NCBI GenBank assembly: GCA_009619075.1
Contig: WJOY01000012.1
Coordinates: 8,507-72,506, forward strand
Direction: 5' to 3'
DNA: 64,000 bases
DNA from: Dehalococcoidia bacterium
Lineage (GTDB): Bacteria > Chloroflexota > Dehalococcoidia > GIF9 > AB-539-J10
In this document: piece by piece, positions 6,566-62,388 of the stretch
How positions within the stretch are numbered: the first letter of the stretch is position 1
Layout: every line of letters begins with the position of its first letter
Program-made: the position numbers and the translations under genes
Notes under the pieces: model-generated
Database searches by the model: none
What the model was told of the DNA's origin: nothing
The model's input: only the letters and a program-made list of their open reading frames with translations

Positions 6566-8173
6566 CTAGCGCCGCTCCAGATATACTTGGCTCAAGTCAG
6601 GAATGCCTAAAGCGTTAAGCTGATAACCTTTGACGTAAGGTTTAACCAAGATATGATTGATACCAAACCATAAGGGCAAGCAGGGAGCTTCGCCCACTAT
6701 CTTCTGCTCAGCTTGCTGATACATAGATAGGCGAGTAGATCCTTCGCTATCGCTCAGGACTGTGTCTGGCTCAATGGCAGCTTGGTTAAGTAAGCTATCT
6801 ATCCCAGGATTGCTGTAGCCAGAGATATTGTTCTCACTTCCAGTATAGAAAAGGTTGTCCAGGAAATTGTGGGGGTCTGGGTAATCAGCCACCCAGCCAA
6901 GCATGAACATCTCATCCCTTTCCTGCTTCAAATGATAAAGAAAGTTTTCTGGCTCCAGTTGCCTCACCTGCACCTCAACTCCAAGATTCTCCCGCCATTC
7001 CTCGATGATGGTTCCCAGGTAATCTGGAATATTATTGCCATAACCGGAAACGGTGAGAGCAATCGGTGGTAAATTTGAGACATCTCCATACTTTGAGGCG
7101 GCAATAAGCTCTTTTGCTTTCCCCACATCGTATTCAAGCCCCTCAAGTCTTTGGCTATAGCCAGGCATACCCGGAGGTAGAATCCCCTTCGCTTCAGCCA
7201 ACATACCCCTCAATATCAACCTAGCAATGCGCTCCTTATCCACAGCGTGGCAAAAGGCGCGGCGGATGTTGACATCGTCGAAGGGAGGCTTGGTGGTGTC
7301 AAAGCCAATATAATAAAGGCTGAGCTCAGGCGTTACGGCTAATTCCCGATGGAATGGGCTAGCCTCATCCGCTGCCAGGTCAATATAATTCCGGAAAAGG
7401 GGAGTGACATCAATCTCGCCCTTTTCATACATAGCCATAGGATTGCCAGCCAGGATGTGGAAGACAACCTGCTTCAATTTAGCTAGCTCGCCATAATAAA
7501 ACTCATTTCGCTCCAAAATCAAAAGTTGACCTTGTTCCCATTTCTTTAACTTGAAAGGACCTGTTCCATTTGGCTGACGCCACCAGTTCTTCCCAAATTC
7601 CACATTAATGCGGTCAACCATAAAGGCAGTAGGGTAAGTCAGCTTGCACAGGAAATAAGCCTTGGGCGCATCGATAGTGACTTCGAGTGTGTAATCATCA
7701 AGAACTCTGATTCCTGAAATTTCCTTCGCTCTGCCTGCCAGCATGTCCTTAGCGCCAACGATGTCGCCCAGATAAGTGGCTGCTGTCTGAGAACTGGTGG
7801 CCGGGTCACAGGCTCGCTCCCAGGAGTATTTGAAATCGTCAGCCTTAACCTCCTCGCCATCATGAAACTTTACCCCGTGGCGAAGGTAGAAGGTGTATGT
7901 TCTGCCATCCTGGCTTTTCTGCCACCGCTCAGCGATGTCAGGCACTACCTCTAATTCAGCATCAAGACGAACTAACCCACTAAAGATCTGCATCACATAG
8001 GTATGAGAGGTCATTTCGCTGGAGATCGCTGGGTCAAGTGTTATGGGACCAATATCCCAAAGGTTAAGAATATCTTGGCCGGAAGACAACCCCCAGGGCT
8101 GGCAGCCAACTGAAGGAATTAATAATGCACAAACGAGGAGAAGTAATACTATAAACCGCCAGATTTTTCTCAT
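6566..8173 (-). CDS. ABC transporter substrate-binding protein, family 5 (peptide/nickel type); no adjacent permease or ATPase genes
   Basis: 535 aa with a lipoprotein-like signal (LLLVCALLIPSVGCQ) and an SBP_bac_5-like length and composition. Confidence 0.75.
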   Translation of the reverse strand: MRKIWRFIVLLLLVCALLIPSVGCQPWGLSSGQDILNLWDIGPITLDPAISSEMTSHTYVMQIFSGLVRLDAELEVVPDIAERWQKSQDGRTYTFYLRHGVKFHDGEEVKADDFKYSWERACDPATSSQTAATYLGDIVGAKDMLAGRAKEISGIRVLDDYTLEVTIDAPKAYFLCKLTYPTAFMVDRINVEFGKNWWRQPNGTGPFKLKKWEQGQLLILERNEFYYGELAKLKQVVFHILAGNPMAMYEKGEIDVTPLFRNYIDLAADEASPFHRELAVTPELSLYYIGFDTTKPPFDDVNIRRAFCHAVDKERIARLILRGMLAEAKGILPPGMPGYSQRLEGLEYDVGKAKELIAASKYGDVSNLPPIALTVSGYGNNIPDYLGTIIEEWRENLGVEVQVRQLEPENFLYHLKQERDEMFMLGWVADYPDPHNFLDNLFYTGSENNISGYSNPGIDSLLNQAAIEPDTVLSDSEGSTRLSMYQQAEQKIVGEAPCLPLWFGINHILVKPYVKGYQLNALGIPDLSQVYLERR

Positions 8174-9822: not shown

Positions 9823-11250
9823 CTAACCTTTCCCAGACGACCGCCGCCAAGTCCATTCTTCTAGAGCTAAAGCACCCCATAAAGCCAGTGATGCGGCCAA
9901 AGCTGATAACACGGCAATTAAGGCAGGATGTAGCCATACCCTTTCAGCTTGGACTGTAGGGGCTATCAGTGTTTCTCGCCAGCGGCTATCAAGCCCGTCT
10001 ATATCAAAACCATAAACCTGGGTTAAAGCTCCATCGTAGGTGTCACCTTCCTTGAAGAGGGTTAATAGATTGAGCATTTTATTTTCGCCATAATTGCGGA
10101 GAAGGTATTCCACCAGGCTATAACTCTGAGCATAGGAAAGATAAGCTTTTTCTGGTTCAGCGGAAAACGGACTGCACAAGCTGCGGACAGAAATTAGCTT
10201 ACCCTCAGAGATAGCCTGGCCCAAGTAGGCTCGGAAATAAGGGTCGAGTTCCCCCTCGTTATACATAGCTAAGCCCTCATCAAGCCAGGTGGGCAGTTCG
10301 CCATAGGGACTGAAAGTTGCCTGGTGAACGACTAAATGCGTCAGCTCGTGAACTAAAGCTTTTTTGCCCCAATCAAGCTGGTCTGGCGAAATGCCGATGG
10401 CAATTGTGCCAAACTCAGTAAAAGCGACACCTCCGGTCCACTCCCGGGGGAAAATCATGGCTCCTTGCAGGTCTCCAGCTGAAGCATAGATATATATCCT
10501 AATAGGCTTCGAGATTGCTTCGTCACTGTGCGCCTCACAATGACTGATGGGCTTCAATCTAGCAAGCCCTTGCTCACAAGCATCTATTAATTCCCGAGCA
10601 AAGGAATCATCTCCTTCATACCAGAAAAGGGTTAAATCACTCTTATTTAGGCTTTGCCAATTATAGCGGCCATCATCAAAATGCACTTCAGCTGGAGGAG
10701 TTTCAAGCTTATTTCCAGCAGCATCTCGTATCGTCCACCAATATGATATAGCCGCCCCAGGAGGCAAGCTCGATTTTCTCATATCCCAAACCCAACTAGT
10801 TTCCACTCTGGTTGCCGGAGCAAAGTCAGGCCAACCCTCGCTGGTAACCAGGGCATAATTCATCTTATCCACCTGATAATGAAGGTGCGCATCAACAATA
10901 TCAGTCTCACTCTCAGCTTCGATAGTGAAGACAAGCGCAATGGGAAAATGCACCTCCACGCTGCTATCCAAGACCGCGATGCCGCTATCAGCCTGTTTAT
11001 CTGTCACCCTGAGCCGAAGCTCTGACTCTGAACGCAGTGAAGAGGAAGAGTCCAGCGAAGGGTCTTCAGACGCCGCCCTGAGCATGACGAAGGGTTCTTC
11101 GCGGAGCCTGTCCTGAGCTAGATTCTTCGGTCGCTCCGCTCCCTCAGAATGACAGATAAGATTGCCCAGAATGTCGTTATCAGCTTGGACAAGGGAGGGG
11201 CTCAGTAGTAAGAAAAGAAGTAGAGTTACTAAGCCAATACGCTTAATCAT
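9823..11250 (-). CDS. Secreted/membrane-anchored putative zinc metallopeptidase (HExxH...E) with a repeat-derived in-frame insert
   Basis: 475 aa. Signal peptide (LLLFLLLSPSLVQA), HELTH plus a downstream EGLAMY gluzincin-like motif, and a C-terminal TM helix. Residues about 30-85 are encoded by the dispersed repeat (CHSEGAERPKNLAQDRLREEP...). Confidence 0.55.
   Translation of the reverse strand: MIKRIGLVTLLLFLLLSPSLVQADNDILGNLICHSEGAERPKNLAQDRLREEPFVMLRAASEDPSLDSSSSLRSESELRLRVTDKQADSGIAVLDSSVEVHFPIALVFTIEAESETDIVDAHLHYQVDKMNYALVTSEGWPDFAPATRVETSWVWDMRKSSLPPGAAISYWWTIRDAAGNKLETPPAEVHFDDGRYNWQSLNKSDLTLFWYEGDDSFARELIDACEQGLARLKPISHCEAHSDEAISKPIRIYIYASAGDLQGAMIFPREWTGGVAFTEFGTIAIGISPDQLDWGKKALVHELTHLVVHQATFSPYGELPTWLDEGLAMYNEGELDPYFRAYLGQAISEGKLISVRSLCSPFSAEPEKAYLSYAQSYSLVEYLLRNYGENKMLNLLTLFKEGDTYDGALTQVYGFDIDGLDSRWRETLIAPTVQAERVWLHPALIAVLSALAASLALWGALALEEWTWRRSSGKG
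11002..11155. repeat. Dispersed-repeat copy embedded in-frame within the metallopeptidase CDS
   Basis: TGTCACCCTGAGCCGAAGC...CGAAGGGTCTTC...GATTCTTCGGTCGCTCCGCTCCCTCAGAATGACAG is the same module set as the intergenic copies at 14445, 35791, 52050 and 54575. Confidence 0.6.
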
Positions 11251-41878: not shown

Positions 41879-41996
41879 CTAAATGAAGTGCTCGATCAAA
41901 TCCCGATCAAATCAATCCTAAATAAGCACGGAATCAAACATAGCATTATTTAGCCGCAGCTTGGGGCGGGATACTTTACATTTATCGCCTATTTGC

Positions 41997-42141
41997 CATC
42001 TCCTCTCAAACTGAAAACCACCCAACTAGCATAAAATTGGCTTTGTTATAATTGTGATATATTAAAAGATATGGCATGAGATAATGCAGGCTAGGCCGAG
42101 ACACGCACAGAGTTCGTATATTTCGATGTTAAACGAAATCG
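41997..42141 (+). promoter_or_regulatory. Conserved ~140-nt noncoding element, copy A (extended -10 TGATATATT plus conserved leader and hairpin)
   Basis: ATCTCCTCTCAAA...TTGTGATATATTAAA..CAGGCTAGgCCgAGACACGCACAGAGTTCGTATATTTCGATG, about 80% identical to copy B at 44440..44580. Terminal hairpin ATTTCGatgttaaaCGAAAT. Confidence 0.5.
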
Positions 42142-44439: not shown

Positions 44440-44580
44440 TATCTCCTCTCAAAGTGAACCCCCCAACAAAGGAAAATTAACTCTTATGATTGTGATATAT
44501 TAAAGATGTGGCCTGAAACAAAACAGGCTAGACCAAGACACGCACAGAGTTCGTATATTTCGATGGTGAGGAAATGGTGG
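44440..44580 (+). promoter_or_regulatory. Conserved ~140-nt noncoding element, copy B
   Basis: See copy A. Terminal hairpin ATTTCgatggtgagGAAAT. Upstream of the glutamine-synthetase-like gene. Confidence 0.5.
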
Positions 44581-44633
44581 GCGGCGCACACAAATGAATC
44601 GTATGTGGTAAGCAACAGAATCAGGTTAACAGG

Positions 44634-45797
44634 ATGATAAAGATTAAAAAAGTTGGACTTGGAATAATAGCGGTAATAGTGGTGCTTGTTGGCTTATGGA
44701 TGTACCATGCTCACGGACTCTATGAGAAAAGTTATAGAAGCGAATATCACTACGGAATTAGGATACAACCTGATTCAGTCCTGCACAACATTACATTATT
44801 CGTGCCGTTGCCTGTATTTGAGGAAGAATCGAAAATAGGTGATGAGATTATAGTCGGAAACTATTTTATCATGGGTGGAAAGTTCTCAAAACCAGATGAT
44901 TGGGATTGCCGCATTGTCGAAACAGAGCACGGAAAGATGCTTAAAATCAATGCAGAGAAGATAGCCCCAGAGTTTCATTCTCTTCCTGTGCCTATAGAAG
45001 ATGCCGCCGAGCAAATTGTTATTGCCAAATGGATGTTAAGGATGATGGGATATAAGTATGGGGTAACCATCAGCTTTGCCCCCAAGATTTTGGTTGGACA
45101 TGCCGGTAGTGGTCTTCATATTCACACAAGATTGGTCAGAAATGGGAAGAATATGATGATTGAAGGAAGTGGGTTAAGTAGTATAGCCAAAAAGGCTATT
45201 GCTGGCTATTTAGCGCTGGCTCCCTCTCTGACTGCCTTCGGTAATACTATCCCTACCTCTTATCTGAGATTAGTCTCCCATCAGGAAGCACCAACAAATA
45301 TATGCTGGGGTGATAGAAACCGATCTGTGTTAGTAAGGGTTCCTTTAGGATGGATAAATGTTAAGAATATGGCCAGAGATGCCAATCCACAGGAGAGGAC
45401 AGAATCTTCAGGATTTATTGATAGGCAGACGGTAGAATTTCGCTGTCCTGATGGTTCGGCTAACATTTATCTTCTACTAGCTGGACTAGCTGTGGCCGCT
45501 CGACATGGATTGGAGATGCGAGGTGCGTTGGAAGTGGCTAATAAATTCTATGTGGATATAAACATCTTTTCCTCTGAACATAAGGGGATTCAGGAGAAAC
45601 TGCCTCAGCTACCTGCCTCATGCTGGGAATCAGCCAAAAGTCTTTTGAGAGATCGTGAAATATACCAGAGGAACGGTGTCTTTTCTTCTACGGTAATTGA
45701 TGGGATAGTGAAAAAGCTTAAGAGCTACAACGATAAAGACCTGAGTGAGAAATTATATGGTAGGGAAGATGAGATTAAAAAGTTGCTCGATGAATAG
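44634..45797 (+). CDS. Glutamine synthetase catalytic-domain protein with an N-terminal transmembrane anchor
   Basis: TM helix (LGIIAVIVVLVGLWMY), then GS motifs GSGLHIHTRL, CWGDRNRSVLVRVP and ANIYLLLAGLAVAARHGL. 387 aa. Confidence 0.6.
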   Translation: MIKIKKVGLGIIAVIVVLVGLWMYHAHGLYEKSYRSEYHYGIRIQPDSVLHNITLFVPLPVFEEESKIGDEIIVGNYFIMGGKFSKPDDWDCRIVETEHGKMLKINAEKIAPEFHSLPVPIEDAAEQIVIAKWMLRMMGYKYGVTISFAPKILVGHAGSGLHIHTRLVRNGKNMMIEGSGLSSIAKKAIAGYLALAPSLTAFGNTIPTSYLRLVSHQEAPTNICWGDRNRSVLVRVPLGWINVKNMARDANPQERTESSGFIDRQTVEFRCPDGSANIYLLLAGLAVAARHGLEMRGALEVANKFYVDINIFSSEHKGIQEKLPQLPASCWESAKSLLRDREIYQRNGVFSSTVIDGIVKKLKSYNDKDLSEKLYGREDEIKKLLDE

Positions 45798-45951
45798 CTC
45801 CATTGTTCGTAACATTGAAAGCCATCGCCGTGCAGTATTGAGAGCTACCACAGCGGATGGTAGAATTCCACAAGTCGAAGCGGATTAGACGAACTCTGAG
45901 CTCGTCTATATACCTGTTATCGGCTATTTGTGCGGCTCGTATTAAGGGAAT

Positions 45952-46554
45952 GTGCTCATGTTGGAACACGAACCTGGATATCTGAGGGAAGAAGATCTTG
46001 GATATCTGAGGGAAGAAGATTTTAGATATCTAACGAAACTATTGCTGTATCCTGTAGAATCAAAAGAGGTGGATTATAAGTCTGCCATGAAATTTGAGGA
46101 AGGAAAAGATTTTGCTGACAAGTTGGTAAAGCATATTTTAGCATTTGCAAATTCGGGTGGGGGACACCTGGTTATTGGCTATAAAGAGCAGGCTGATGGT
46201 AGCCTTGCTCCTGACCCAGGTATTACAGATGAAATTGTAGCCTCATATGAAGTTACCAGGTTGTGTCAGTATGTTGAAAAATACTTGGACGGGCAGGATA
46301 GAATTAAAATTATAATTTTTAAGGTAGAATTTGCAGGAATTAAGTATCCTGTAATACGTATCTATCGATTTCAAGAGTGTCCGTTTGTTTGCACTAAAGA
46401 TTGTGCTTCTACAGGAGCTAGGGGAGCTATTCTTAAAGCAGGTCGGGTATATATAAGGACTGAGGGTGCAAGGACACTTGAGGTTGCGATAGTCAAAGCA
46501 TCTCCTGAATGGAGACAATTAATAAGTGAATGTAGAAAGCGTGGTAAGGAGTAG
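45952..46554 (+). CDS. AlbA_2 / Schlafen-like (divergent AAA) domain protein, first gene of the nuclease island
   Basis: LVKHILAFANSGGGHLVIGYKEQADGS matches the AlbA_2 core. The N-terminus contains a 24-bp tandem duplication (GYLREEDL twice). Confidence 0.55.
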   Translation: MLMLEHEPGYLREEDLGYLREEDFRYLTKLLLYPVESKEVDYKSAMKFEEGKDFADKLVKHILAFANSGGGHLVIGYKEQADGSLAPDPGITDEIVASYEVTRLCQYVEKYLDGQDRIKIIIFKVEFAGIKYPVIRIYRFQECPFVCTKDCASTGARGAILKAGRVYIRTEGARTLEVAIVKASPEWRQLISECRKRGKE

Positions 46555-46559
46555 AGGTC

Positions 46560-48017
46560 ATGAAGAGTGTATCAAAGCAAATATTCTTGAATGCTCTCGT
46601 ATGCCCCACATTGGGATGGCTATTGAGGTCTGGGGAAGTTGCTAAGCAAATTACCAAGACAGAACTGACCCTGGGCGAGAGGTTTCGGATAGAGCAGGGA
46701 ATTGAGATTGGAAGGAGGGCAAGAGAACTCTACCCAGGTGGCTTATTAATAGATGACACGGATTTGGTGTCTGCTTCAAGGAAGACAGAAAGGTTGATGA
46801 ATGACCAAAATGTTTCGATAATCTTGGAGGGAGCCTTCCTTATTGACGGGTTTGTAGCTAGAGCAGATATATTGAGACGAAAAGGTAAAGGCTGGCATCT
46901 TGTTGAAGTAAAATCCAGCGTGAACGACAGAGAGGAATTCATAGATGACATGGCGTATACAGCTATGGTTGTTGACCGCTGTGGTTTTAATATCTCTAGT
47001 GTCTCGCTGTTATTAGTCTCCAAAGATTTTCGGTTAGGAATGGAAAACGAAGAACTTTTCGCGCAAATAGACCATACAGATAAAGTTCTGGTTCGAGTTG
47101 AGGAATTCAAACCTTTTTGGCAGCAAATCGAGGAAATAACCAGGACACCGGTAAAGCCAGAGCCCCGACTTCTATTTGAGTGCCGCAAATGCGAACTTTT
47201 CAAAGAGTGTCTAGGTAAAGATATTGATAATCATATATTCGACATTCCACGACTAAGTCAATCCAAATTCGACCAATTAGCAGAATTGGGAATAGTTTGT
47301 ATTAAGGCTATCCCAGATGGCTTTCCCTTGACCGAAAATCAAGCCAGGGTGAGGGAGTGTGTACAAACAAAGAATCCATTCGTTGGAGATAGACTTAAAA
47401 GTGAATTGACATCTATTTCATGGCCTGCTTATTATCTGGATTTCGAAACAGTTATGACAGCAATACCGTTATATCCCGATATCGCGCCTTATACTCAGAT
47501 ACCAACACAATACTCTATACATAAATGTTCTGATGTTGACCTTATCATTGATAACTTAGAATATTTAGCTGACCCAAGTAAGGACTGCAGAAGGGAACTT
47601 ACTGAGAATTTGATCAACAACCTTGGAGAAAATGGTAGTATAATTATTTATTCTAATTTTGAAAAGGCTGTTGTTAACAGCCTCGGGAGATTATATCCTG
47701 ACCTTTCAGAAAGACTGAATTCCTTGGTAGGACGGATGATAGACCTTGGAGCAATCATTGGAAGGAATTATTATCACCCGGATTTTCACGGAAGCACATC
47801 AATAAAGGTAACCCTTCCTGTTCTAGTGCCTGAGATGTCATATGATAATTTGGAAATTGCAGATGGCGATTCGGCTATGGCAGCTTTCGCCTATTTGGCA
47901 CTTGGCAAATATGAAGATGAGAAAGTCGAAGCAATAAAAAGGAACCTTTTGGAATATTGCAAACAAGATACACTAGCTATGGTTAAGTTACATCAACGAT
48001 TGACTGACTATGTATGA
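46560..48017 (+). CDS. DUF2779-like dual nuclease: N-terminal PD-(D/E)xK (Cas4/RecB-like) plus C-terminal DEDD 3'-5' exonuclease-like domain
   Basis: IDGFVARADIL...WHLVEVKSS (D...E-V-K), a Cys cluster (CRKCELFKEC), YYLDFET (Exo I) and YCKQDTLAMVKL (Exo III). 485 aa. Starts 6 nt after the previous gene. Confidence 0.55.
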   Translation: MKSVSKQIFLNALVCPTLGWLLRSGEVAKQITKTELTLGERFRIEQGIEIGRRARELYPGGLLIDDTDLVSASRKTERLMNDQNVSIILEGAFLIDGFVARADILRRKGKGWHLVEVKSSVNDREEFIDDMAYTAMVVDRCGFNISSVSLLLVSKDFRLGMENEELFAQIDHTDKVLVRVEEFKPFWQQIEEITRTPVKPEPRLLFECRKCELFKECLGKDIDNHIFDIPRLSQSKFDQLAELGIVCIKAIPDGFPLTENQARVRECVQTKNPFVGDRLKSELTSISWPAYYLDFETVMTAIPLYPDIAPYTQIPTQYSIHKCSDVDLIIDNLEYLADPSKDCRRELTENLINNLGENGSIIIYSNFEKAVVNSLGRLYPDLSERLNSLVGRMIDLGAIIGRNYYHPDFHGSTSIKVTLPVLVPEMSYDNLEIADGDSAMAAFAYLALGKYEDEKVEAIKRNLLEYCKQDTLAMVKLHQRLTDYV

Positions 48018-48102
48018 TCCTGCAAGTGATAGCAAAATTTATTTGGCTGCTTGCCTTCGGCACTCCGCAAGCATACAAAACAGTGATTAAGGAGAGTAAA
48101 CC

Positions 48103-49383
48103 ATGTCCAGAATAGCCATCCTTAGCGATGCACATCTTTTAATCCAAGCTGAGCGCTTTAGGGACGAGAACTACCGGTCTCCACGGGGAGAAATCTCGCT
48201 CAAAAATTTTAGCCAAGTTATCCGGCAAGTAATAGCGGAGGAACCTGAAGCGGTCATCCTTGCCGGTGATATGTTTGACGAGAGGGAAAAAGGAGGAGAG
48301 TGGATAGCGGATTCAGAAGCAGCCAAATACTGGCCCACTATTCGCAATGAACTAAAGCGCTTAACGGAATGCACTAAATATGGCATTTACGCCCTGAGAG
48401 GAAATCATGACTCTGCACCAGTGTTGAAAGAGCTTCAAGATTACCTGGGAGACAGATTCTGCTTTGTTAGAGATGAAGACAAGGAAATCGGCGACCAGCA
48501 CCTGTATTTCATGGAAACCCGCTATCGGCAGGGCACTTATAGAATCCCCGAGGAAGACCTTCCCAGGGAAGGGGAGTTGCTCATCATGCATGAAACCATA
48601 CCCTGGGGTATGCCTGGACTGGAGGAGAAGGTGTTTCAGGAGTTGGGCAAAAGGTTCTCTCTTCTATTTAACGGTCACATGCATCATTATGCCCAGGGTC
48701 CACTCGATATACCCCATCTTTATTCCCTGCCAGCCTTGATCCCATCGCAGGAGCTGAAAAATAATTTCACCATCAAATACCAATGGCCCGGCGATTTAGA
48801 CCACCCCGAAGTCAAAAACTCCCCCTTTGGCTATCTAATACTGGACGGTCATGAGATTTCATTCCAAAGATATACCCCTATACAGAACATAGTTAATGTT
48901 CGCATCGAAGGGAAAACTCCTCGCGATGTCGTCGCTGGAATCAACGAGGTCTATTCCAGACTGATGGAGCGGGAGGACAGGGATAATCTCTGGATATGGG
49001 TTTCCGCTCAAGGGGTCACTTTCAAGGACACTGTTCAAAAGGAAACCAATAAGTATTCCGAAATAAACACCATGAACATAGAGATCAAAGCGAGGAAAGA
49101 GCCTACCACGCATGCCGAATTAAAGGGACTGGAGAAGATGATAAGCCTGTCCGACCTGGAGGCAAAGGTGTTAACTTCCCTGCCCTGGCCCGATAGAGAT
49201 TTAGCCCAGAAGCTATTCGAGGAAATCTTCACCGCCGACAATTTATCCAGGAGAGCAGATAGCAACCTGGGAAGGTCTCTCTTTCAAAGGCTTCTGGAAT
49301 TATCCGCTCCTCATTACGGCGTGTCACCAGAACATGTAATTGACTTTCTTAAGACAGTAGACCCGCTGTGGAAGAGAAGGTAA
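48103..49383 (+). CDS. Mre11/SbcD-like metallophosphoesterase nuclease
   Basis: Calcineurin-fold motifs ILSDAHL, LAGDMFD, GNHD and NGHMHH. 426 aa. Confidence 0.75.
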   Translation: MSRIAILSDAHLLIQAERFRDENYRSPRGEISLKNFSQVIRQVIAEEPEAVILAGDMFDEREKGGEWIADSEAAKYWPTIRNELKRLTECTKYGIYALRGNHDSAPVLKELQDYLGDRFCFVRDEDKEIGDQHLYFMETRYRQGTYRIPEEDLPREGELLIMHETIPWGMPGLEEKVFQELGKRFSLLFNGHMHHYAQGPLDIPHLYSLPALIPSQELKNNFTIKYQWPGDLDHPEVKNSPFGYLILDGHEISFQRYTPIQNIVNVRIEGKTPRDVVAGINEVYSRLMEREDRDNLWIWVSAQGVTFKDTVQKETNKYSEINTMNIEIKARKEPTTHAELKGLEKMISLSDLEAKVLTSLPWPDRDLAQKLFEEIFTADNLSRRADSNLGRSLFQRLLELSAPHYGVSPEHVIDFLKTVDPLWKRR

Positions 49384-49389
49384 GGGAAA

Positions 49390-51714
49390 ATGAAACTGGC
49401 TAAGGTTGCTTTTGAAAACGTGATGGAACTGGAAGGCTCCATCGCCTTTCCCGAGGGGAGAGCTGTCGTTATCTATGGCGAAAACAAAGCCGGGAAGTCC
49501 AATATAATCCATGCTCTTAGGTATGCTTTCCTCAGCAAAGTAATAAGGCCCAGGAAAAGCCCGGGATACGATGAATTGAAGCTGGTGACAGGAAAAGAGA
49601 TAGCTCCTGCTGAGGGTGTGGGAAGGATACTGATAGAGTTCGAGCATAATGGTGAGCAATTTGAAATCCGCCGAGAAATCGACCGGTATAAGGATAACAA
49701 TAGAATTCTGAAAAAAGAGGCTGGAGGACTTCGAGAGCTTGATTTCAATAAGACCATAGGTAAGGAACTGAAGGCGGGATTGCTTGATGCTCTTTTCGCT
49801 CCGGATAGTGCTATGGGTTTCAATCACCTTAACGAGAAAAATATTGATGCCGTTATTCGGGAGTTATTCAAAGAGATTGGGAATGCCAAGGTGCTGGTTA
49901 AAGATTTCAAGCAGCGCGTGGAGAGACTGACGGAAGAGGCACAGGCAAAAGTCACCGGCATAGAAAGAGATTATAGCTCCTTCATAGGCGAATTGAAGGG
50001 AAATCTGAGAGAGTTACCCCTTGATTTGAGCAGCTTTGAAAGATATCAGCCTGGCAAGACAGCAGAGAAAATAAGCTGTGTCGGCGAGGAGTTGAAAAGG
50101 TACATTGATAGCATCGAGAAAGGCGAGCTCAAGGAATGGCTAAACGAAATGAGAAACCGGGCTAAGGTAGCAGAGGATGTGGAAGGGCTGCTTACTGATA
50201 GCTATCAGCTGACAGCTGACGGCTTTCGTAAGATGAAGGAGATTTCACAGGATGAGGAACGCTTGAGTCTGCTGTTGGCTGAACTTGGGGCGGTGAAGCT
50301 CGGTAGTCCTATGCCACAAGAACCGGGCAGGTTCTATGATGGCGAGTTAGATAATCGTGCCAGAATTTTTTATCAAAAACTTAGAGAGGCACAAACTCGT
50401 TATTCTAACGCCCTGTCTCTGGCTCAAGAGGAGAGAATTGACTTCAAGATTGATAATCCGGCGAGGGTTAGAAGCGACAAGGAGAAAGTGCTGCGGCTGT
50501 TGACCATGGACGTTGCCATCCCGGATGCACCCAGAGTCAAAGTTGACCTGGTCAAAATTGGTTCTGAGAGTGGTGAAGAATCTGTGCATGGACTTGTTCC
50601 CCTAAAACTCATGGACGAGGACCCTGCTTTCACCAAGCTGAGCTCAGAGCCAATTCCCGATGCACCCGAAGAGCACAAGAGGCAATATGCCGAAGCCCTC
50701 GGGAAAAGAATAGAGAAGTTAAGAATCATATGCGAGGATAAGGATAGGGCTGAGAGCTTCTTTAACAATGAGTTTACGCCCAGGCTTACTGACCTCAGCA
50801 GTTATGGCACTACCTTGATGGAAAGGGAAAAGGAGGAGAGAGAAAGGATTTCAAACCTGGCTAAGGACATATATAACAGACTGCTTCTATTCGCCCGGGA
50901 GGAAATTACAGTGCCTGCGTTGGAGTACGAGGGAGATGTAGAGCCATTCACGCTGGCCGTAAGACAAATTCTATCCCGTAAGAAGTCAGACTACACAGGG
51001 GATGTCAATGCCAAGGTGAAGTCTCTGGGCATACAGACAGAGGAGTTTAATACCCATGAGATGGATAGTCTTTTATGTCAACTTGCCGAGATGGAAAAAG
51101 GCATACCGCAATATAGCAGCACCTGGACTGACCTCACGAGGCAGAAAAGAAACGAGTGGGAAAACAACGATGCTGAATATGCCGATTTAGCCTATGTGCC
51201 TGCAGTGGTAGAGGGACTTAATAGAACCCTCGATACCATCTTACTTAACGCTTTTGATGAGCAGGAGGTAATACAGGGAATAAAAGAGATCATAGCTGAG
51301 ATAAATGACAAACTCATAGAAGAAGGGTTAGTAAATTCCTGTATTGAAATGGGCGAAGATAGCCTGCAGCTCAGCAGGACGACTTATAAAGATAGAGAGA
51401 TAACCCACCCCTGCGGAGCAGAAAGGTCCTTCTTTAGCCTGGCGGCACTGACTGCCCTGGCAATATATTTCAGGCTTCCTGTTATCATAGATGAAGCGGC
51501 GAATAACCTTGATAAGAAGCGCTTGCGAGACTTCATCTCGCTGATAAAGGAGTTTGCCGCTAGTTACGATGTTCAGTATATTCTCTCAATAAAAGAAACC
51601 GATGACTTTCCCCTTGATGGCTGGGTTCAGGAATTTGCCGATGACCTGCAAATATACCGCGTAGATTACGACGGCCACAAGAAACATATCAAGCCCATTG
51701 AGCTATATGTCTAG
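49390..51714 (+). CDS. Rad50/SbcC-like SMC-type ATPase lacking a zinc hook
   Basis: Walker A GENKAGKSN, a long coiled coil, signature-like CGAERSFFSLAALTAL, and Walker B PVIIDEAANNLD. No CxxC hook. 774 aa. Starts 7 nt after the SbcD-like gene. Confidence 0.7.
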   Translation: MKLAKVAFENVMELEGSIAFPEGRAVVIYGENKAGKSNIIHALRYAFLSKVIRPRKSPGYDELKLVTGKEIAPAEGVGRILIEFEHNGEQFEIRREIDRYKDNNRILKKEAGGLRELDFNKTIGKELKAGLLDALFAPDSAMGFNHLNEKNIDAVIRELFKEIGNAKVLVKDFKQRVERLTEEAQAKVTGIERDYSSFIGELKGNLRELPLDLSSFERYQPGKTAEKISCVGEELKRYIDSIEKGELKEWLNEMRNRAKVAEDVEGLLTDSYQLTADGFRKMKEISQDEERLSLLLAELGAVKLGSPMPQEPGRFYDGELDNRARIFYQKLREAQTRYSNALSLAQEERIDFKIDNPARVRSDKEKVLRLLTMDVAIPDAPRVKVDLVKIGSESGEESVHGLVPLKLMDEDPAFTKLSSEPIPDAPEEHKRQYAEALGKRIEKLRIICEDKDRAESFFNNEFTPRLTDLSSYGTTLMEREKEERERISNLAKDIYNRLLLFAREEITVPALEYEGDVEPFTLAVRQILSRKKSDYTGDVNAKVKSLGIQTEEFNTHEMDSLLCQLAEMEKGIPQYSSTWTDLTRQKRNEWENNDAEYADLAYVPAVVEGLNRTLDTILLNAFDEQEVIQGIKEIIAEINDKLIEEGLVNSCIEMGEDSLQLSRTTYKDREITHPCGAERSFFSLAALTALAIYFRLPVIIDEAANNLDKKRLRDFISLIKEFAASYDVQYILSIKETDDFPLDGWVQEFADDLQIYRVDYDGHKKHIKPIELYV

Positions 51715-52215
51715 TGTCATCTTGTCGTTGCGAGGCATAGCCGAAGCAATCCCCTCTCCCTTGACCCCATAATGTCACTACGAGCCCCCTTTTCTGTCAT
51801 TGCGAGCCGCAGGCGAAGCAATCCCCCTCTCCCTTGACGGGAGAGGAATAAGGTGAGGGTGAAAAATAGTGAGGCGTCTCCCACCATCATTACGAGCCCC
51901 CTCTCGTCATTGCGAGCCAAAGCGAAGCAATCTCTTTTACAATTAAAAATGTAGTGCGAGGCTTTAGCCTCGTGCACGACCCTAAAGGGTCGCACTACGA
52001 AAATCTTGGAGGCGAAGATTATTAAAACAGGAGAGGAGTCCTTCCAAATTTGTGCCAACTGTCATTCTGAGCGCGGCGAAGAATCTCCCCGTCCCAAGCC
52101 CTTCACTCTCTGTCATTCTGAGGGAGAGAAGCGACCGAAGAATCTCGCTCAGGACAGGCTCCGCGAGGGAACTCGACAAAACAATCTCAAAACTGAACCC
52201 CACCCCACAAATGAA
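51715..52215. repeat. Large mosaic hairpin-repeat cluster (island boundary)
   Basis: GTCATTGCGAG..CGAAGCAATC occurs three times, then GTAGTGCGAGGCTTTAGCCTCGTGCACGACCCTAAAGGGTCGCACTAC, TGTCATTCTGAG twice, and CGAAGAATCTC. Confidence 0.65.
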
Positions 52216-52233
52216 AACTGGCTTCGCTGTAAC

Positions 52234-52312
52234 GGTGATATAATAGATATATTAAAGATACAGGATGATACAAAGCAGGCCAGACCAAGCAAGCACGGAG
52301 TTCCTATATTTC
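52234..52312 (+). promoter_or_regulatory. Conserved noncoding element, copy C (3' 80 nt only)
   Basis: GATATATTAAAGATA...CAGGCCAGACCAAGCAAGCACGGAGTTCCTATATTTCAGCG. Upstream of the flavodoxin-like gene. Confidence 0.4.
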
Positions 52313-52456
52313 AGCGTCAGGTGATCTCTTTTTGAGCAGTTTGAAGGGGGGTGATGAGGATGAGACGCTGCTAGATGTAGGACGAGGATAAGTTCTTGTA
52401 TCCTTTGGCAGAAAACGGCTATGGCGGAGGAAAAGTTAGCATAAGGAGGTGCGGAT

Positions 52457-52921
52457 ATGTCGGCGAAAGTTATCGTTGTTTATGACTCAAAGTATGGTAA
52501 CACTAAACTCGTAGCAGAAACAATCGCAGCAGGTACGAGACAAGTTGAAGGAATGGAAACTGTCGTCAGTGGAGTCAAAGAGGTTGACCTTAACAGAATC
52601 CCCGATTATGACGTGATTTTAGTAGGCTCTCCGAATCATATAGGTGGGCCAACCAGGGGTATCAAGAAGTTTATTGACAAACTTGGCAAGCTTCCCTTAG
52701 AGGGGAAAATGTTTGCTGTTTTTGACACATACCTTGGAAAAGACTTCGAAAAGGTAGTGAAGAAAATGGAGAGGAGGATAAGCGAGAAGATCCCTGGACT
52801 GAAACCAGTGGCTCCCGGCTTATCAATAAGAGTTGAGGGGATGAAGGGTCCGATTTCAGAGGGCGAGCTTCCCAAGTGCAGGGAGTTTGGAAAGAAAATA
52901 GCAACTCAAATAAAAGCTTGA
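52457..52921 (+). CDS. Flavodoxin-like fold protein
   Basis: VIVVYDSKYGNTKLVAE flavodoxin signature, 154 aa. AAGGAGG ribosome-binding site. Confidence 0.7.
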   Translation: MSAKVIVVYDSKYGNTKLVAETIAAGTRQVEGMETVVSGVKEVDLNRIPDYDVILVGSPNHIGGPTRGIKKFIDKLGKLPLEGKMFAVFDTYLGKDFEKVVKKMERRISEKIPGLKPVAPGLSIRVEGMKGPISEGELPKCREFGKKIATQIKA

Positions 52922-53053
52922 CTTATTTCCATAGGTGGCTAACACTGAATAAAAGAGAAATGGAAACATTCCCCCAACTCTCGACAATTCAGGACCTCTT
53001 TTATCCTCAAAATGGTTAGTAAGATGGACAACACTCCATCGGGGGGCAGAAAA

Positions 53054-54550
53054 ATGGGACAGAAGTCAATAATTATCGTTGGTGCTGGTGTCGCCGGCCT
53101 ATCAGCGGGGTGCTATGGCCAGATGAACGGCTACCACACCCAGATCTTCGAGCTACAGAATAAACCAGGCGGCCTGTGCACCTCCTGGCAGCGCAAGGGA
53201 TACACCATTGATGGCTGCCTGCACTGGCTAGTTGGCTCTAGCCCGGCAAACAACTTCTACCGCATTTGGGAAGAGTTGGGCGCGGTGCAGGGGCGGCGTA
53301 TGATTGACCATGATGAGTTTATGCGGATTGAGGGCGCTGGTGGCAAAGTCTTTATCCTCTATACAGACATTGACCGCTTAGAGCAGCACATGAAGGAGCT
53401 TGCTCCGACGGACAAGGAGGTGATCGAAGAGTTCATTGAAAGCATACGTGCCTGCACTCGCTTTGACCTACCAATCGGAAAAGCGCCTGAGTTATATGGT
53501 CCCCTTGATGGGCTTAAGCTGCTATCTAAAATGTTCCCTTCCCTGAAAGTTATGAGGAAATGGAAAAAGATTCCTGTCCAAGAATTTGCCCAGCGGTTCA
53601 GCGACCCCTTCCTGCGCGAAGCTTTCCCTCTTTCCTTTGACCTTCCTGATTTTCCCATGATGGGTATGCTGATGACTCTGGCCTGGATGCACAAGAAGTC
53701 GGCTGGCTATCCCATAGGCGGCTCACTGGAGTTTTCCCGTGCCATCGAACGGCGCTACCTCGACCTAGGAGGCGCGATTCACTACCGTTCACCGGTAAGC
53801 AAAATCCTGGTAGAAAAGGATCAAGCTGTAGGTGTGCGATTGGCTGATGGCACGGAGCACCGTGGTGATATCATTATCTCTGCCGCCGATGGTCACTCAA
53901 CTATTTTTGACATGCTGGAGGGAAAGTACATCAATGACAAAATTCGGGGGTACTACGATAAACTGCCCATCTTCCCTCCACTTGTTCACGTAGCGCTAGG
54001 TGTGGCGCGGTCTTTCGAGGGATTGCCACATTCTATAATCTACCCTCTTGAGGAACCAGTGACTATTGCCGGGCAGGAATACAAGTCGGTAGGTGTGGAG
54101 ATTCACAACTTTGACCCCACCCTAGCCCCGCCAGACAAGACGGTGCTCAAAGTCATGTTCCTTTCCGATTATGACTACTGGAAAGAGCTGAGACAGAACT
54201 CTGCTCGCTACCAGGCGGAGAAGGATAATATTGCTGATAAGGTGACTGCTATACTCGATCAGCGTTTCCCTGGGCTGGCTGGTCAGGTTGAGATGTGTGA
54301 TGTAGCTACGCCCATGACCTGGGAGCGCTATACCGGCAACTGGCGAGCCAGCTTTGAGGGCTGGCTAATCACCACGAAAACCTTTGGCATGCGCATGAGC
54401 AAAACTTTGCCCGGGCTCAAGAATTTCTACATGGCCGGGCAGTGGGTTATGCCAGGGGGTGGTGTGCCCACGGCAGCTATGTCAGGCCGCAATGTAGTTC
54501 AGATCATCTGCAGCCAAGATAAGAAGCCATTTGTGGTAAGCATTCCATAA
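53054..54550 (+). CDS. FAD-dependent oxidoreductase, phytoene-desaturase (CrtI)-like family
   Basis: IIVGAGVAGLSAG...GGLCTSW dinucleotide-binding motif, about 500 aa. Start at the ATG with a purine-rich ribosome-binding site. Confidence 0.75.
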   Translation: MGQKSIIIVGAGVAGLSAGCYGQMNGYHTQIFELQNKPGGLCTSWQRKGYTIDGCLHWLVGSSPANNFYRIWEELGAVQGRRMIDHDEFMRIEGAGGKVFILYTDIDRLEQHMKELAPTDKEVIEEFIESIRACTRFDLPIGKAPELYGPLDGLKLLSKMFPSLKVMRKWKKIPVQEFAQRFSDPFLREAFPLSFDLPDFPMMGMLMTLAWMHKKSAGYPIGGSLEFSRAIERRYLDLGGAIHYRSPVSKILVEKDQAVGVRLADGTEHRGDIIISAADGHSTIFDMLEGKYINDKIRGYYDKLPIFPPLVHVALGVARSFEGLPHSIIYPLEEPVTIAGQEYKSVGVEIHNFDPTLAPPDKTVLKVMFLSDYDYWKELRQNSARYQAEKDNIADKVTAILDQRFPGLAGQVEMCDVATPMTWERYTGNWRASFEGWLITTKTFGMRMSKTLPGLKNFYMAGQWVMPGGGVPTAAMSGRNVVQIICSQDKKPFVVSIP

Positions 54551-54574: not shown

Positions 54575-54915
54575 AGGCTTGTCCCCCTCCGCAGAGTTTA
54601 TCTCGAGCGAGATTCTTCGGTCGCTCTGCTCCCTCAGAATGACAGGAGGCGAAGGGCTCAGGGCTTAGACTCACCCTTGCAATGACATAGTGATGGCAGT
54701 CCCGTGGTTATATTCCTGGCTTTTATGAGCTATAATTCAGTTTATGTAGGAGGTACCATAGTTCAAGGGTTAAGCTAAACCAATTTTCACGGAGGGTGTT
54801 TATTTGGTACTCTAAATTAAGTGGAGAGTGTTGAGATTCTTCCCCTTCATTTCGTTCAGGGCTCTGGCTCACACGCTCAGAATGACAGGGGGGCGAAGGA
54901 CTCACAATGACAAGT
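54575..54915. repeat. Dispersed-repeat copies (two clusters, 54575-54700 and 54860-54915)
   Basis: GATTCTTCGGTCGCTCTGCTCCCTCAGAATGACAGGAGGCGAAGGG, and CTCAGAATGACAGGGGGGCGAAGGACTCACAATGACA. Confidence 0.55.
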
Positions 54916-58511: not shown

Positions 58512-59684
58512 ATGAAATTATTAGTTATAGGTCTAGGTCAATGTGGCGGCAGAATTGCCGATAGGTTCGCTCGGCTAAATAAGAGGGCGCGTGCTCTGCG
58601 GAAAATCAATATCATTGCCGATGCCTTTGCTGTTAACACAGATGTTGCTGATTTAAGTGGATTACGCACTATCAAATCTGATTACAAACACAGAATTCTT
58701 ATCGGGGGGCAACGGACCAATGGTCATGGAGTAGGTAAGGTAAGTGAACTTGGCGCCGAGATAGCGAGGGAAGATACTGATAAGATCATAGATGCTATAA
58801 GAAGGTCAGAGCAGTTCTATGAGACAGACGCCTTCTTGTTGGTTGCTGCTGCTGCCGGTGGCACTGGTTCTGGATCAATAGCAGTGCTAACGCAGTATTT
58901 GAAACAGCGCTATATAGGAAAGCCGGTCTACAATGTTATCGTTTTGCCATTTAGGCAAGAAGAAACAACAGAATCAAGAGCTGTTTACAACACGGCTATG
59001 TGCCTCAAGTCTACCTACTTAGTGGCTGATGCGATAATTCTTATTGACAACCAAAGGTATGTCAAAAAAGATTCTCCGGCCGGAAACAACCTGGCGGTGA
59101 TTAATGCCCGAGTAGTTGAACCATTTTACAATTTGCTTTGCGCTGGTGAAGAGAGGAACAAAAAATACATTGGGGCAAGAACGCTTGACGCTGGAGACAT
59201 AATACAGACTCTGGCAGGATGGACAATAATTGGCGAAGGTAAATCGCCAATCCCACGAAGGATACCCCTATTTGGACCAAAACGTGATTTCAGAGCCAAG
59301 ATGGATGAAACCAGCAAAGCAGCTCACGCTATGGATCAAGCCCTAGGTGAGTTATCGCTCACATGCGATCCTAAAAATGCTGGGAGGGCTTTATACCTTG
59401 TCACCGCACCGCCCAAAGAAATGCATATGGAGATAATCAAGGAACTTGGGGACAATTTAAGCACTGTGGCTCCAGATGCTTTAATACGGAGCGGTGATTA
59501 CCCTAGACAGAAAGGTTCGCTGTATGTCACTGTAATCCTATCTGAAATTAGCAGTGTCAGGAAAATCACGAACTACTTTACCAGAGCAATTGACTTAATT
59601 TCTGTTATCAAAGCTAAGCGTGGAGTAGAGTACTCAAACAGAAAACTCGCAGAAACCTTCGCTGATATCCCTCTATTACTATAA
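58512..59684 (+). CDS. CetZ-like tubulin/FtsZ-superfamily GTPase (full length)
   Basis: IGLGQCGGRIADRF (tubulin/CetZ-type G-box), AAAGGTGSGS (tubulin-type GGGTGSG, not FtsZ GGGTGTG), T7-loop TLDAGDI, C-terminal GDYP. 390 aa. The blocks NGHGVGKVSELGAEIAREDTDKI and DAFLLVA...PVYNVIVLP resemble haloarchaeal CetZ. Confidence 0.75.
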   Translation: MKLLVIGLGQCGGRIADRFARLNKRARALRKINIIADAFAVNTDVADLSGLRTIKSDYKHRILIGGQRTNGHGVGKVSELGAEIAREDTDKIIDAIRRSEQFYETDAFLLVAAAAGGTGSGSIAVLTQYLKQRYIGKPVYNVIVLPFRQEETTESRAVYNTAMCLKSTYLVADAIILIDNQRYVKKDSPAGNNLAVINARVVEPFYNLLCAGEERNKKYIGARTLDAGDIIQTLAGWTIIGEGKSPIPRRIPLFGPKRDFRAKMDETSKAAHAMDQALGELSLTCDPKNAGRALYLVTAPPKEMHMEIIKELGDNLSTVAPDALIRSGDYPRQKGSLYVTVILSEISSVRKITNYFTRAIDLISVIKAKRGVEYSNRKLAETFADIPLLL

Positions 59685-60275: not shown

Positions 60276-61928
60276 CTAGCCTTGCTCCACTTCATCATTC
60301 TCGGTAGCTTCTTCCTCAGCATGTTCAGCTTTATGAGCGGCATACATTTGAGCCAGGAAATCCAACCTTGCTTGAATTTCCCTTCTAGACTCTTTTGGCT
60401 CCCTCTTTTCTTCTGCAACAGCTTCAGCCTTACTTAAAGGCTCCTCAATCCCCTTGCTTACCTTTTCAGCTCCACCCATCGCTTGCTCAAATACTCGTAT
60501 TGATGCCTTTGCCGCCTTTCTAGCTGATTTAGTTGTTTCCTCAGTCCTATTGATCGCCTCTTCGAACGCCCTTACCGCTGTTATAACGGCCTCCTTGGCT
60601 TCCCTTACCGCTCTCTCAGTAACTTCCCTGGCTACTTGTGTTGCTTCCTCAGCGGCCTTCATGGCCGCCTGGCCTATCTCCTCAGCTCTGGCTATGGCCT
60701 CTTGGGAGGCTTTCTTTGCCTCCTCGGCAGTTTCCTTAGCCGCTTGATCTGTCTCCTCAAGCCTACCTACAGCTTCCTGGGATGCTTTTCTTGATCCCTC
60801 GGCATCCCCCATGACTGCCTGGCCTATCTCCTCAGCTCTGGCTATGGCCTCTTGAGAGGCTTTCTTTGCCTCCTCGGCAGCCTCCTTAGCCGCTTGACCT
60901 ATCCCTTCAACCCTGCTTATAGCTTCTTGGGATGAGTTTCTTGATTCCTCAGCAGCCTCCACGGCCACCTGGTTCATCTCCTCAGCTCTGGCTATAGCCT
61001 CTTGGGAAGCCTTCATTGATGCTTCAGCAGATTCCTTGACCCATCTGACCGATGCCTCAGTTCTGCTTATAGCTTTCTGAGATGCTTTTATCACTGTTTT
61101 AGCCTCTTTCTTGGTTGTTTTGCTTATTTCACTGGCCCTGCTTATTACTTCCTCAAATGCCCTTGCGGACTCTTCGGTAGACTCCTTAGCCGATATGCTC
61201 ACTTTATTGGCTCTGCTTATTGCCTCCTCGAATGCCCTGGCAGACTCCTCGGCAGACTTCGTGGCTGCTTGGCTTGTCCTTTCAGCTTTGCTTACTGCTT
61301 CCTGTGATGCTTTCTGCGCTTCCTTGGCAGCTTTGGCGGCTGCCTTGCCTCCCTCCTCAGCTCTGGTTATAGCTTCTCGGGAGGCCCACATCGCTTCCTG
61401 AGCGGTTCCCATGACCGCCTGGCCTACTTCCTTAGCTCTGGTTATAGCCTCTTGGGAGACTTTCGTCGCCTCCTGAGCGGTTTCCATGGCCGCCTGGCCT
61501 ATCTCCTCAGTTCTGGCTATAGCCTCTTGGGAGGCTTTCATCGATGCTTCAGCAGCCTCCCTGGCCCATTTGACCAATGCCTCAGTTCTGCTCACCGCTT
61601 CCTTAAATTCCTTTGCTGATGACTCAGCAGAGTCCGTGACTGATTTGATCGATGCCTCAGCCTTGCTTATCGCCTCCTGTGATGCTTTTATCGATGCTTC
61701 AGTAACCTCCTTGGATGCTTGGCTTATCCTTTCAGCTCTGCTTACTGCTTCCTGTGATGCTCTCTTTGCCTCCTCAGCAGCCTTCATGGCTGCCAGGCTT
61801 ATCTCCTCAACCCTGCTTATAGCTTCTTGAGATGCCCTCTTTGATTCCTCAGCAGCCTGCCTGGCCGCTTGACTTAGCTTCTCAGCTCTTGCTACTGCCT
61901 GCTCAAATGTCGCAACACTACTTTTCAT
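60276..61928 (-). CDS. Tandem-repeat alpha-helical protein (~22 copies of a 22-residue, 2x11-mer amphipathic repeat)
   Basis: The consensus ASQEAIaRaEEIGQAAMkAAEEAKk is repeated along 550 aa. The DNA contains near-identical internal duplications (for example 60650-60730 versus 60800-60880, and 61380-61460 versus 61470-61540). Convergent with the CetZ-like gene. Confidence 0.6.
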   Translation of the reverse strand: MKSSVATFEQAVARAEKLSQAARQAAEESKRASQEAISRVEEISLAAMKAAEEAKRASQEAVSRAERISQASKEVTEASIKASQEAISKAEASIKSVTDSAESSAKEFKEAVSRTEALVKWAREAAEASMKASQEAIARTEEIGQAAMETAQEATKVSQEAITRAKEVGQAVMGTAQEAMWASREAITRAEEGGKAAAKAAKEAQKASQEAVSKAERTSQAATKSAEESARAFEEAISRANKVSISAKESTEESARAFEEVISRASEISKTTKKEAKTVIKASQKAISRTEASVRWVKESAEASMKASQEAIARAEEMNQVAVEAAEESRNSSQEAISRVEGIGQAAKEAAEEAKKASQEAIARAEEIGQAVMGDAEGSRKASQEAVGRLEETDQAAKETAEEAKKASQEAIARAEEIGQAAMKAAEEATQVAREVTERAVREAKEAVITAVRAFEEAINRTEETTKSARKAAKASIRVFEQAMGGAEKVSKGIEEPLSKAEAVAEEKREPKESRREIQARLDFLAQMYAAHKAEHAEEEATENDEVEQG

Positions 61929-62388
61929 ATTCCCTGAGGACTTTTGGAAAACCTCGCTTGGCTCCGCAAAGTCCAGCGGTTTTCCTTACCCCTTATATTT
62001 CTTATTTTAATAGGAGTTACTAAAATTTTCAATGCCTAGCCCGTCAGGGGCAGGGTTATTAAATCTCCCTTGGCAACTTCCCGTAGGTGTTCTAGCGCTA
62101 GAATGTCCACGTTATCGAACCAGGCAAAGGCAAAAAGCCACCTCAAGTAAAGGACTTCAAAAAATCTTCACAGAGGCGGTGAGTATGAAGGGCCAACAGC
62201 CCTTAAGCAGCAAGGTTGATAGCTACCATAGTAAATGTTAGAGTTTGCTAGACCAAAGCGGATTAGATGAACTGTGGGTTCGTATACACTGCTGTTGTCT
62301 GCCATTTTCAATGAGATGTGAGTTAGATGGATATTGATCGTAGTATAAAGATGAGGTTGGTGTTTGAGGATCAAAAGAAGCCATATTT

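Follow-up and report, generated by a model that had tools for sequence, protein, structure and literature searches.

A putative mobile promoter with a shared 5′ leader recurs ahead of accessory genes in a Dehalococcoidia lineage

Why would three dissimilar operons of one Dehalococcoidia genome share some 140 nt of noncoding DNA upstream of their coding sequences? Sediment Dehalococcoidia are uncultured and, to our knowledge, almost nothing is known of their gene control. A sequence-only reading of a 64,000-nt stretch of Dehalococcoidia DNA (hereafter the window) had noticed the element in front of redox- and stress-type genes and offered several explanations for it: a shared promoter plus 5′ leader, a cis-regulatory RNA, or a binding site through which one regulator coordinates oxidative-stress genes. 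Here, we follow the element through the window and through related genomes and ask which of these explanations its copies support.

Three plus-strand copies (A, B and C) were indeed present where that reading had placed them. The 20-nt core pattern GCACRGAGTTCSTATATTTC was found three times as opposed to 0.03 expected, and none of 100 shuffles of the window reached three matches. Copies A and B, claimed to be about 80% alike, were identical at 110 of 139 aligned positions (79.1%), with 70.1% for A/C and 68.2% for B/C; random 140-nt pairs drawn from the window, serving as a control, had a mean identity of 29.4% (sd 8.1, max 41.3). As proposed, A, B and C alike carried an extended -10 box (TGATATATT or TGATATAAT), and each stood 5′ of a different set of plus-strand genes. 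The extent proposed for copy A also agreed with the conservation profile of 26 dereplicated copies (see below), which lay above background from ~42003 to ~42135. Copy C had been described as keeping the 3′ 80 nt only, but proved to be full length (~52184-52325) and to have its -10 box duplicated by a 9-nt insertion. An nhmmer profile gave no additional copy in the window’s other 54 kb. The features of the three copies are as follows.

41961..42002, + strand: far-upstream extension of copy A, from the extended alignment (..AGCGGCAGTTTGGGGCG.AACGCTTC..ATCGTCTAT..)
41997..42141, + strand: copy A, whole module (nhmmer, 146.8 bits), 5′ of a 68-aa membrane ORF, a rubrerythrin/EncFtn-like gene and an Fe/Mn-SOD gene (Pfam)
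42044-42052 and 42055-42063, + strand: promoter boxes of copy A, TGTTATAAT and TGATATATT, respectively (TGNTATAWT scan)
42064..42136, + strand: leader and core of copy A, AAAGATATGGCATGAGATAATGCAGGCTAGGCCGAGACACGCACAGAGTTCGTATATTTCGATG.. (core HMM, 42073-42136, 63.6 bits)
44440..44580, + strand: copy B, whole module, with the -10 box TGATATATT at 44493-44501 and the core at 44509-44572
44634-45797: gene behind copy B, encoding a Gln-synt_C protein with an N-terminal membrane anchor (Pfam)
52184..52325, + strand: copy C, whole module, with TGATATAAT at 52236-52244, the duplicated GATATATT at 52246-52253 and the core at 52263-52324
52457-52921 and 53012-54550: genes behind copy C, encoding a flavodoxin and an amine-oxidase/CrtI-like flavoprotein (Pfam)

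The search for relatives of the element combined several routes. An exact-pattern scan of species genomes returned two Dehalococcoidia metagenome-assembled contigs that share synteny with the window and are 91-94% identical to it in nucleotide sequence, and a degenerate-pattern scan of metagenomes, whose pattern forced TATA to be present, yielded 14 further loci (loci are numbered with the prefix L; L008 from the metagenome scan and L001 from the genome scan were discarded as chance matches). An nhmmer profile built from aligned copies reached diverged copies beyond the pattern, and loci fetched via flavodoxin homologues contributed extra copies. Together, the window and 21 related loci held 38 copies, 26 after dereplication at 90%. 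A same-strand ORF followed 37 of the 38 copies at a distance of 18-397 nt, the remaining copy being cut by a contig end. In these contigs, fetched through either the element or flavodoxin, the random placement and orientation that had been named as the mark of a MITE are thus not seen.

The two halves of the module also occur apart. The promoter half alone sits directly 5′ of genes at L013_2285 (acyl-CoA dehydrogenase) and L016_2556, and the core alone is found at L006_3400 / L013_4812 and at L006_2174 / L013_3734. The first of these lone cores lies 15 nt past a stop codon and 29 nt ahead of an SRPBCC gene, and is 98.8% identical between L006 and L013, the flanking coding sequences being 82% and 87% identical. 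This comparison provides modest evidence that the core may be kept for its own sake.

The 5′ half of the module ends in an invariant extended -10 box, TRTGnTATAWT. Across the 26 distinct copies, GTGATATA(T/A)T formed the best-conserved block (0.87), and conservation peaked at GTGATATAT (0.87) and AATGCAGGCT (0.85) over a background of ~0.4-0.5. In diverged copies, the -10 hexamer changes to TATACT, TATAAT, TATGAT or CATAAT only, with the A at position 2 and the T at position 6 kept. A further conserved region precedes the box (CAAAACTGAA..CCCAAC..AAACTGGCTT), the -35 region, CTGGCT-like and separated by a 15-nt spacer, is poor, and a generic promoter scan of the window did not call the module sites. 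The window has 13 TGNTATAWT sites, a number that none of 100 shuffles reached (5.3 expected), and 9 or 10 of these sites lie 8-96 nt 5′ of co-oriented start codons. We read the extended -10 motif TGNTATAWT as this organism’s ordinary promoter type, as predicted from its enrichment and gene-proximal position; a literature search for transcription start site or promoter data from Dehalococcoides returned nothing usable. Copy A would then start transcription at ~42068-42071, and module-bearing 5′ UTRs in the window would be long, ~126-195 nt as compared to 8-96 nt at the other TGnTATAWT sites. At the short end, on the minus strand, TGATATAAT at window 5517-5525 ends 8 nt ahead of the start codon of ORF 4489-5508, the mRNA of which may be leaderless.

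Beyond the -10 box, the conserved block runs on for ~65 nt. This leader is C/A/G-rich with little structure (..GAGAYAAAGCAGGCTAGRCCRAG(A)CAMGCACRGAGTTCSTATATTTCG), and the core follows the -10 box at a distance of 16 to 34 nt, a range due in part to duplication of GATA-containing units of 9-12 nt. Inspection spoke against an upstream ORF or leader peptide, as start codons and frames vary and a 1-nt indel shifts the frame. The far-upstream extension (41961..42002 in A), common to many but not all copies, was likewise discounted as a coding remnant: no frame is kept on either strand, and the similarity is what 75% DNA identity alone would give. A separate leader module is shared by several loci 3′ of the core (L005/L004, L003 3598-3680 and L017 7250-7300); it consists of a GC-rich hairpin, TTGCCCGCCCC..(16 nt)..GGGGNCGGCAA, and occurs in three gene contexts (a 107-aa ORF, DUF3795 and SOD).

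The sequence-only reading had further related two short motifs, at 45877-45922 and 62252-62300, to the core of A, B and C. Both turned out to sit inside a separate two-copy family of 92 nt (D4), whose members are 71% identical.

45838..45929, + strand: D4 copy a, TTGAGA-N17-TGgTAGAAT followed by a leader dyad, TAGACGA-N9-TCGTCTA; 5′ of the AlbA_2 gene
62216..62307, + strand: D4 copy b, TTGATA-N17-TGtTAGAGT followed by ..GCTAGACCAAAGCGGATTAGATGAAC-TGTGG-GTTCGTATA; 5′ of the 62389 ORF

The promoter scan showed the promoter-like site TTGAGA-N17-TG.TAGAAT to be this family’s own, and the dyad follows the consensus TAGAYGA(AC)...(GT)TCGTMTA. The link to the core was not significant by HMM: the core HMM did not find the D4 copies on the plus strand, and the D4 HMM reached the A, B and C cores at E = 0.11-0.97 only. 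By eye, GCTAGACCAA.GC ... GTTCGTATA of the 62252 copy resembles the A/B/C core, and some diverged copies of the A/B/C type contain GCGGATTAAG, bridging to D4. A relationship between D4 and the core is possible on such resemblance, though not statistically supported.

Comparing genomes revealed how the modules and the genes behind them have been exchanged. Collinearity between L003 and the window extends to 44565, the final base of the B core, where L003 switches to a different cassette, and resumes at 48102; the replaced segment (44566-48101) comprises the B leader, the GS-like gene and the genes for AlbA_2 and a DUF2779/Cas4-like nuclease. At ~41961, the 5′ edge of the A module with its extension, identity between the window and L002, L003 and L007 rises in a sharp step. 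Upstream of it (DUF3795 and HEAT genes), third codon positions are 75-86% identical; downstream (module, 68-aa gene and rubrerythrin-like gene), identity is 98-100%. This step implies a recent exchange of the SOD cassette among populations. In L009, a patch in the A leader is only 79.5% identical and B-type-like, with flanks of ~96%. Breakpoints, step and patch, as read from these alignments, bear the mark of homologous exchange and of gene conversion between repeat copies. Given such exchange, high identity alone is no proof of selection, and recent duplication and gene conversion could account for some or all of the leader conservation. Among several genomes, the A cassette is 98-100% identical throughout, so comparing its orthologues is uninformative in this respect.

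Several other features of the window deserve mention. AlbA_2 and the DUF2779/Cas4-like nuclease form a four-gene block (45952-51714) with Metallophos and an SMC-like ATPase that matches PADLOC LmuB (3.5e-13); the block could represent SbcCD with partners or a Lamassu-like defence system. GC-rich palindromic intergenic repeats of several families (984-1101, 4357-4381, 5521-5866, 11095-11155, 51723-52170 and 54587-54645; motifs GTCATTCTGAG..CGAAGAATCTC, GTCATTGCGAGSC..GCCGAAGCAATCC, GTAGTGCGAGGCTTTAGCCTCGYGC and GGTCGGGGACAAGCCCCGACC) are REP/MITE-like in appearance and adjoin the 5′ edge of the module in C-type copies. ORF 60276-61928 on the minus strand (550 aa) consists largely of ~19 tandem 75-nt (25-aa) repeats at 60535-61959; it has no Pfam or PADLOC match and a strongly skewed local composition. 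Window 58512-59684 encodes a tubulin/FtsZ-family protein with a CetZ_C C-terminal domain (E = 1.5e-15), here on a Dehalococcoidia-like contig; CetZ is regarded as archaeal. Gene orientation flips from minus to plus at ~35.7-36.0 kb, where cumulative GC skew is at its minimum, yet no DnaA-box cluster was found at this ~36 kb strand switch and we do not propose a replication origin there.

With respect to the genes served by the module, the cargo in the window comprises SOD, rubrerythrin-like, flavodoxin, membrane-anchored Gln-synt_C (GS-like) and amine-oxidase-type flavoprotein genes and the 68-aa membrane ORF. SOD recurs as cargo in two architectures and flavodoxin at several loci. Relatives add DUF3795, SRPBCC, SnoaL, GNAT, HEAT-repeat, NAD-epimerase, TM2 and Abi_alpha genes, an AAA_15 operon and a 1204-aa MmeI-like restriction-modification gene. 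In the more distant relative L021 (flavodoxin 77% identical), the module lies 3′ of flavodoxin and 5′ of the next gene, and in L022 (flavodoxin 73% identical) the module is absent. The idea of one regulator for oxidative-stress genes hence fits the redox- and stress-related cargo of the window, but not the mixed cargo elsewhere or the L021 flavodoxin; a regulon specific to oxidative stress is weakly supported. The gene set is that of an accessory stress and defence island rather than a clean oxidative-stress regulon. The flavodoxin 5′ UTR (window 52380-52456) also harbors a conserved block of its own (..GTTCTTGTATCCTTTGGC..TAAGGAGGTG), which is seen at L013 ~6900-6990 and L021 9920-10000 and persists in L021, where the module is not 5′ of flavodoxin; it may be a gene-specific leader element. 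Window 52254-52265 is complementary to 52394-52405 at 83%. The membrane-anchored protein with a glutamine-synthetase catalytic domain (44634-45797) measures 387 aa here and 251-253 aa in L007, L009 and L011, suggesting truncated or frameshifted variants of an unusual GS-like protein.

Which function, then, do the copies best fit? Long predicted 5′ UTRs, an element that is conserved and always points the same way as the gene behind it, and a small terminal hairpin in A and B are what a structured cis-regulatory RNA (riboswitch, attenuator or thermometer) would lead one to expect. That hairpin, described earlier as a conserved ATTTCG/CGAAAT stem closing each copy, holds for A (6 bp) and in shortened form for B (5 bp), but C lacks it; among 22 copies, 56.8% of cells pair as compared to 61.1% in column shuffles, with no excess of covariation, and no terminator-like U tract follows. 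RNAalifold on 22 copies returned 0 pairs and 0 kcal/mol, and folding A, B and C as RNA or DNA on both strands gave z-scores of -0.8 to +1.1, equalled by shuffles. Rfam, the check suggested by the sequence-only reading, was negative as well: at gathering level the whole window yielded 0 matches, and around the copies no relevant one turned up even when E <= 5 was allowed. All these tests count against a structured RNA, which we regard as very improbable. A mobile or site-specific recombination element, be it a MITE whose promoter points outward or a cassette boundary resembling integron attC, would suit the arrangement of the copies as direct repeats between co-oriented small accessory genes, the variation of cassette content between genomes with breakpoints at the element edges, the strings of the RYYYAAC type (GCCCAAC) and the GTTRRRY type (GTTAGGC / GTTAAAC) close to the two ends, and the breakpoint of L003 between G and TT. 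Yet the three copies share no terminal inverted repeats, their ends do not pair, neither DNA strand forms a long imperfect hairpin (the same z-scores, -0.8 to +1.1), and orientation is never reversed. No integrase or transposase occurs among the genes examined, IntI in particular being absent from the Pfam-annotated genes of the window beyond its first 32 kb and of the examined loci. Viral and mobile-element contigs gave no true match, just one simple-repeat artefact, and homologous recombination between 130-nt repeats accounts for the breakpoints. A MITE (no terminal inverted repeats, fixed orientation), an attC site (no hairpin, no integrase among the genes examined) and a tRNA/tmRNA att site (no tRNA genes in the window) were accordingly rejected, and a mobile element is, to us, the most improbable of the readings considered here. 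The MITE/attC and structured-RNA readings fail because the defining features tested here are absent.

Since the core lacks RNA structure, its sequence-specific recognition is plausible, and it could be the DNA operator of one oxidative-stress or iron transcription factor (PerR/Fur/Rex/DtxR-like), acting as a repressor roadblock just past the promoter. All three cargo sets of the window are redox- or stress-related, other genomes again have SOD and flavodoxin among the cargo, and GATA(T/A) repeats run at ~11-12-nt spacing from the -10 box into the leader, with one extra 12-nt unit in L017. Such an operator would, on the other hand, have to serve Abi_alpha, an MmeI-like restriction enzyme, GNAT, HEAT, SnoaL and epimerase genes while sparing the L021 flavodoxin; lone-core copies have no recognisable promoter alongside, and no regulator gene was found in the annotated neighbourhood of the copies. 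A repeat finder detected no conserved palindrome except an AT-rich overlap at the -10 box, there is no fixed-spacing repeat (16 to 34 nt from -10 box to core), and by eye the consensus sequences of Rex, CRP, PerR, Fur and DtxR could each be fitted at one half-site only: TTGTGA is the Rex/CRP left half-site, with the right half absent and no 7-1-7 dyad. We deem the operator reading unlikely. The core might instead be a second promoter, P2 (-35 TAGACC, 18-19 nt spacer, -10 TATATT), in a tandem arrangement whose long spacer would imply MerR/SoxR-type or alternative-sigma control. Conservation among paralogues stops 6-10 nt past the core TATATT, where a start would fall; the lone cores L006_3400 / L013_4812, 15 nt past a stop codon, have no other promoter-like site; and pattern-found copies carry T.GAC-like and TATAYT hexamers. 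But TATA was imposed by the scan pattern, and profile-found copies lose it (TGTGTATCC, CGTTTAGCT, CGGATATCC, AGTCAAATT and CACACCGCT). L009_5751 has a 6-nt deletion in the putative spacer and still stands 5′ of an intact SOD operon leader; moreover, an 18-19 nt spacer is suboptimal and contains no MerR-type dyad. Because profile-found copies often lack TATATT and one has lost 6 nt of spacer, the core is not an obligatory second promoter, and P2 strikes us as quite unlikely.

Of the explanations first offered, a shared promoter plus 5′ leader is favoured, by the invariant -10 box, the enrichment and gene-proximal position of the motif, the ~65 nt of conservation beyond it and the co-orientation of 37 of 38 copies. 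Going by these sequence features, we think it probable that the element is a propagated promoter and 5′-leader module (a “putative mobile promoter”), the shared leader of which is kept for a common trans-acting factor. Each copy would be a portable expression module of ~135 nt, or ~180 nt with the optional upstream extension. Its 5′ half would be a sigma-70/sigma-A-type promoter of the extended -10 class with a weak -35, and its 3′ half the first 60-70 nt of the transcript, an unstructured leader, with transcription starting ~7 nt past TATATT. The module would have been copied ahead of unrelated accessory genes (stress, redox and phage defence) in one sediment/subsurface Dehalococcoidia lineage, where homologous recombination and gene conversion between copies would keep them alike, and the same recombination would exchange downstream gene cassettes between genomes. 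The leader would probably persist because a common trans-acting factor docks on it, either a repressor on DNA just past the start or a protein or small RNA on the mRNA; either option would co-regulate the cargo genes. Against this reading, the cargo genes are too varied to suggest one evident signal, and no typical operator architecture (dyad or regular direct repeat) is evident in the copies.

In a bolder version, which we put forward as doubtful, the leader would be the recognition sequence of a novel global Dehalococcoidia regulator (an RNA-binding protein, small RNA or DNA-binding repressor), and the module would plug acquired genes into one stress/defence regulon and anchor recombinase-independent cassette exchange in a plasticity island. 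If so, it would be a functional analogue of an integron, built from promoters. On present evidence, this is neither a new RNA class nor a new mobile-element class: it is a real, lineage-specific family that reflects fairly ordinary promoter reuse and not a structured RNA switch. Even so, a reusable promoter–leader module offers a handle to predict transcription units and promoters in sediment Dehalococcoidia genomes, and the candidate co-regulated set takes in their few oxygen-defence genes (SOD, rubrerythrin-like and flavodoxin). It also provides a concrete example of promoter reuse and homologous recombination assembling and reshuffling an accessory-gene island.

How does the module compare with known systems? 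As with the PerR, Fur and Rex boxes of anaerobes, a motif is common to the upstream regions of SOD, rubrerythrin-type and flavodoxin genes, but those boxes are dyads of 15-19 bp, whereas the module is conserved over ~135 nt, has no dyad and serves defence and miscellaneous cargo. Like Correia elements, ERIC and REPIN, it is a short intergenic repeat able to supply promoters; unlike them, it lacks terminal inverted repeats or hairpin potential and keeps a fixed orientation to the downstream gene. The attC or VCR arrays resemble it in their ~130-nt conserved direct repeats between co-oriented small accessory genes and in their strain-variable cassettes. By contrast, an attC site is an imperfect palindrome of R''/L''-L'/R' layout, folds in single-stranded form and depends on an integrase; the module has no foldable palindrome, no integrase was found among the genes examined, and its cassettes bring their own promoter.

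In form, the module parallels the putative mobile promoters (PMPs) of Matus-Garcia, Nijveen & van Passel (2012), of which PMC3575422 gives a summary. They are defined by at least 80% identity over at least 50 nt, a position -150 to -50 relative to start codons, and non-paralogous genes (PMC3575422). Between A and B, 42065-42128 and 44502-44565 are 88% identical over 64 nt and lie within -150 to -50 of the starts at 42205 and 44634, respectively, and the genes behind the copies (68-aa ORF with Rubrerythrin and Sod_Fe; Gln-synt_C; Flavodoxin_1) belong to different Pfam families. A and B thus fall within the operational definition of PMPs, promoter function itself being predicted from the motif. 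PMPs, like the module, are highly similar non-coding stretches 5′ of non-paralogous genes in one genome, do not match known IS elements or Rfam families, and are thought to rewire expression. They are mostly pairs, and their mechanism was left open; the module family, in contrast, is a large one, with no fewer than 26 distinct copies among the contigs sampled; it is bipartite in its promoter and leader and clustered in one island, with cassette exchange at its borders.
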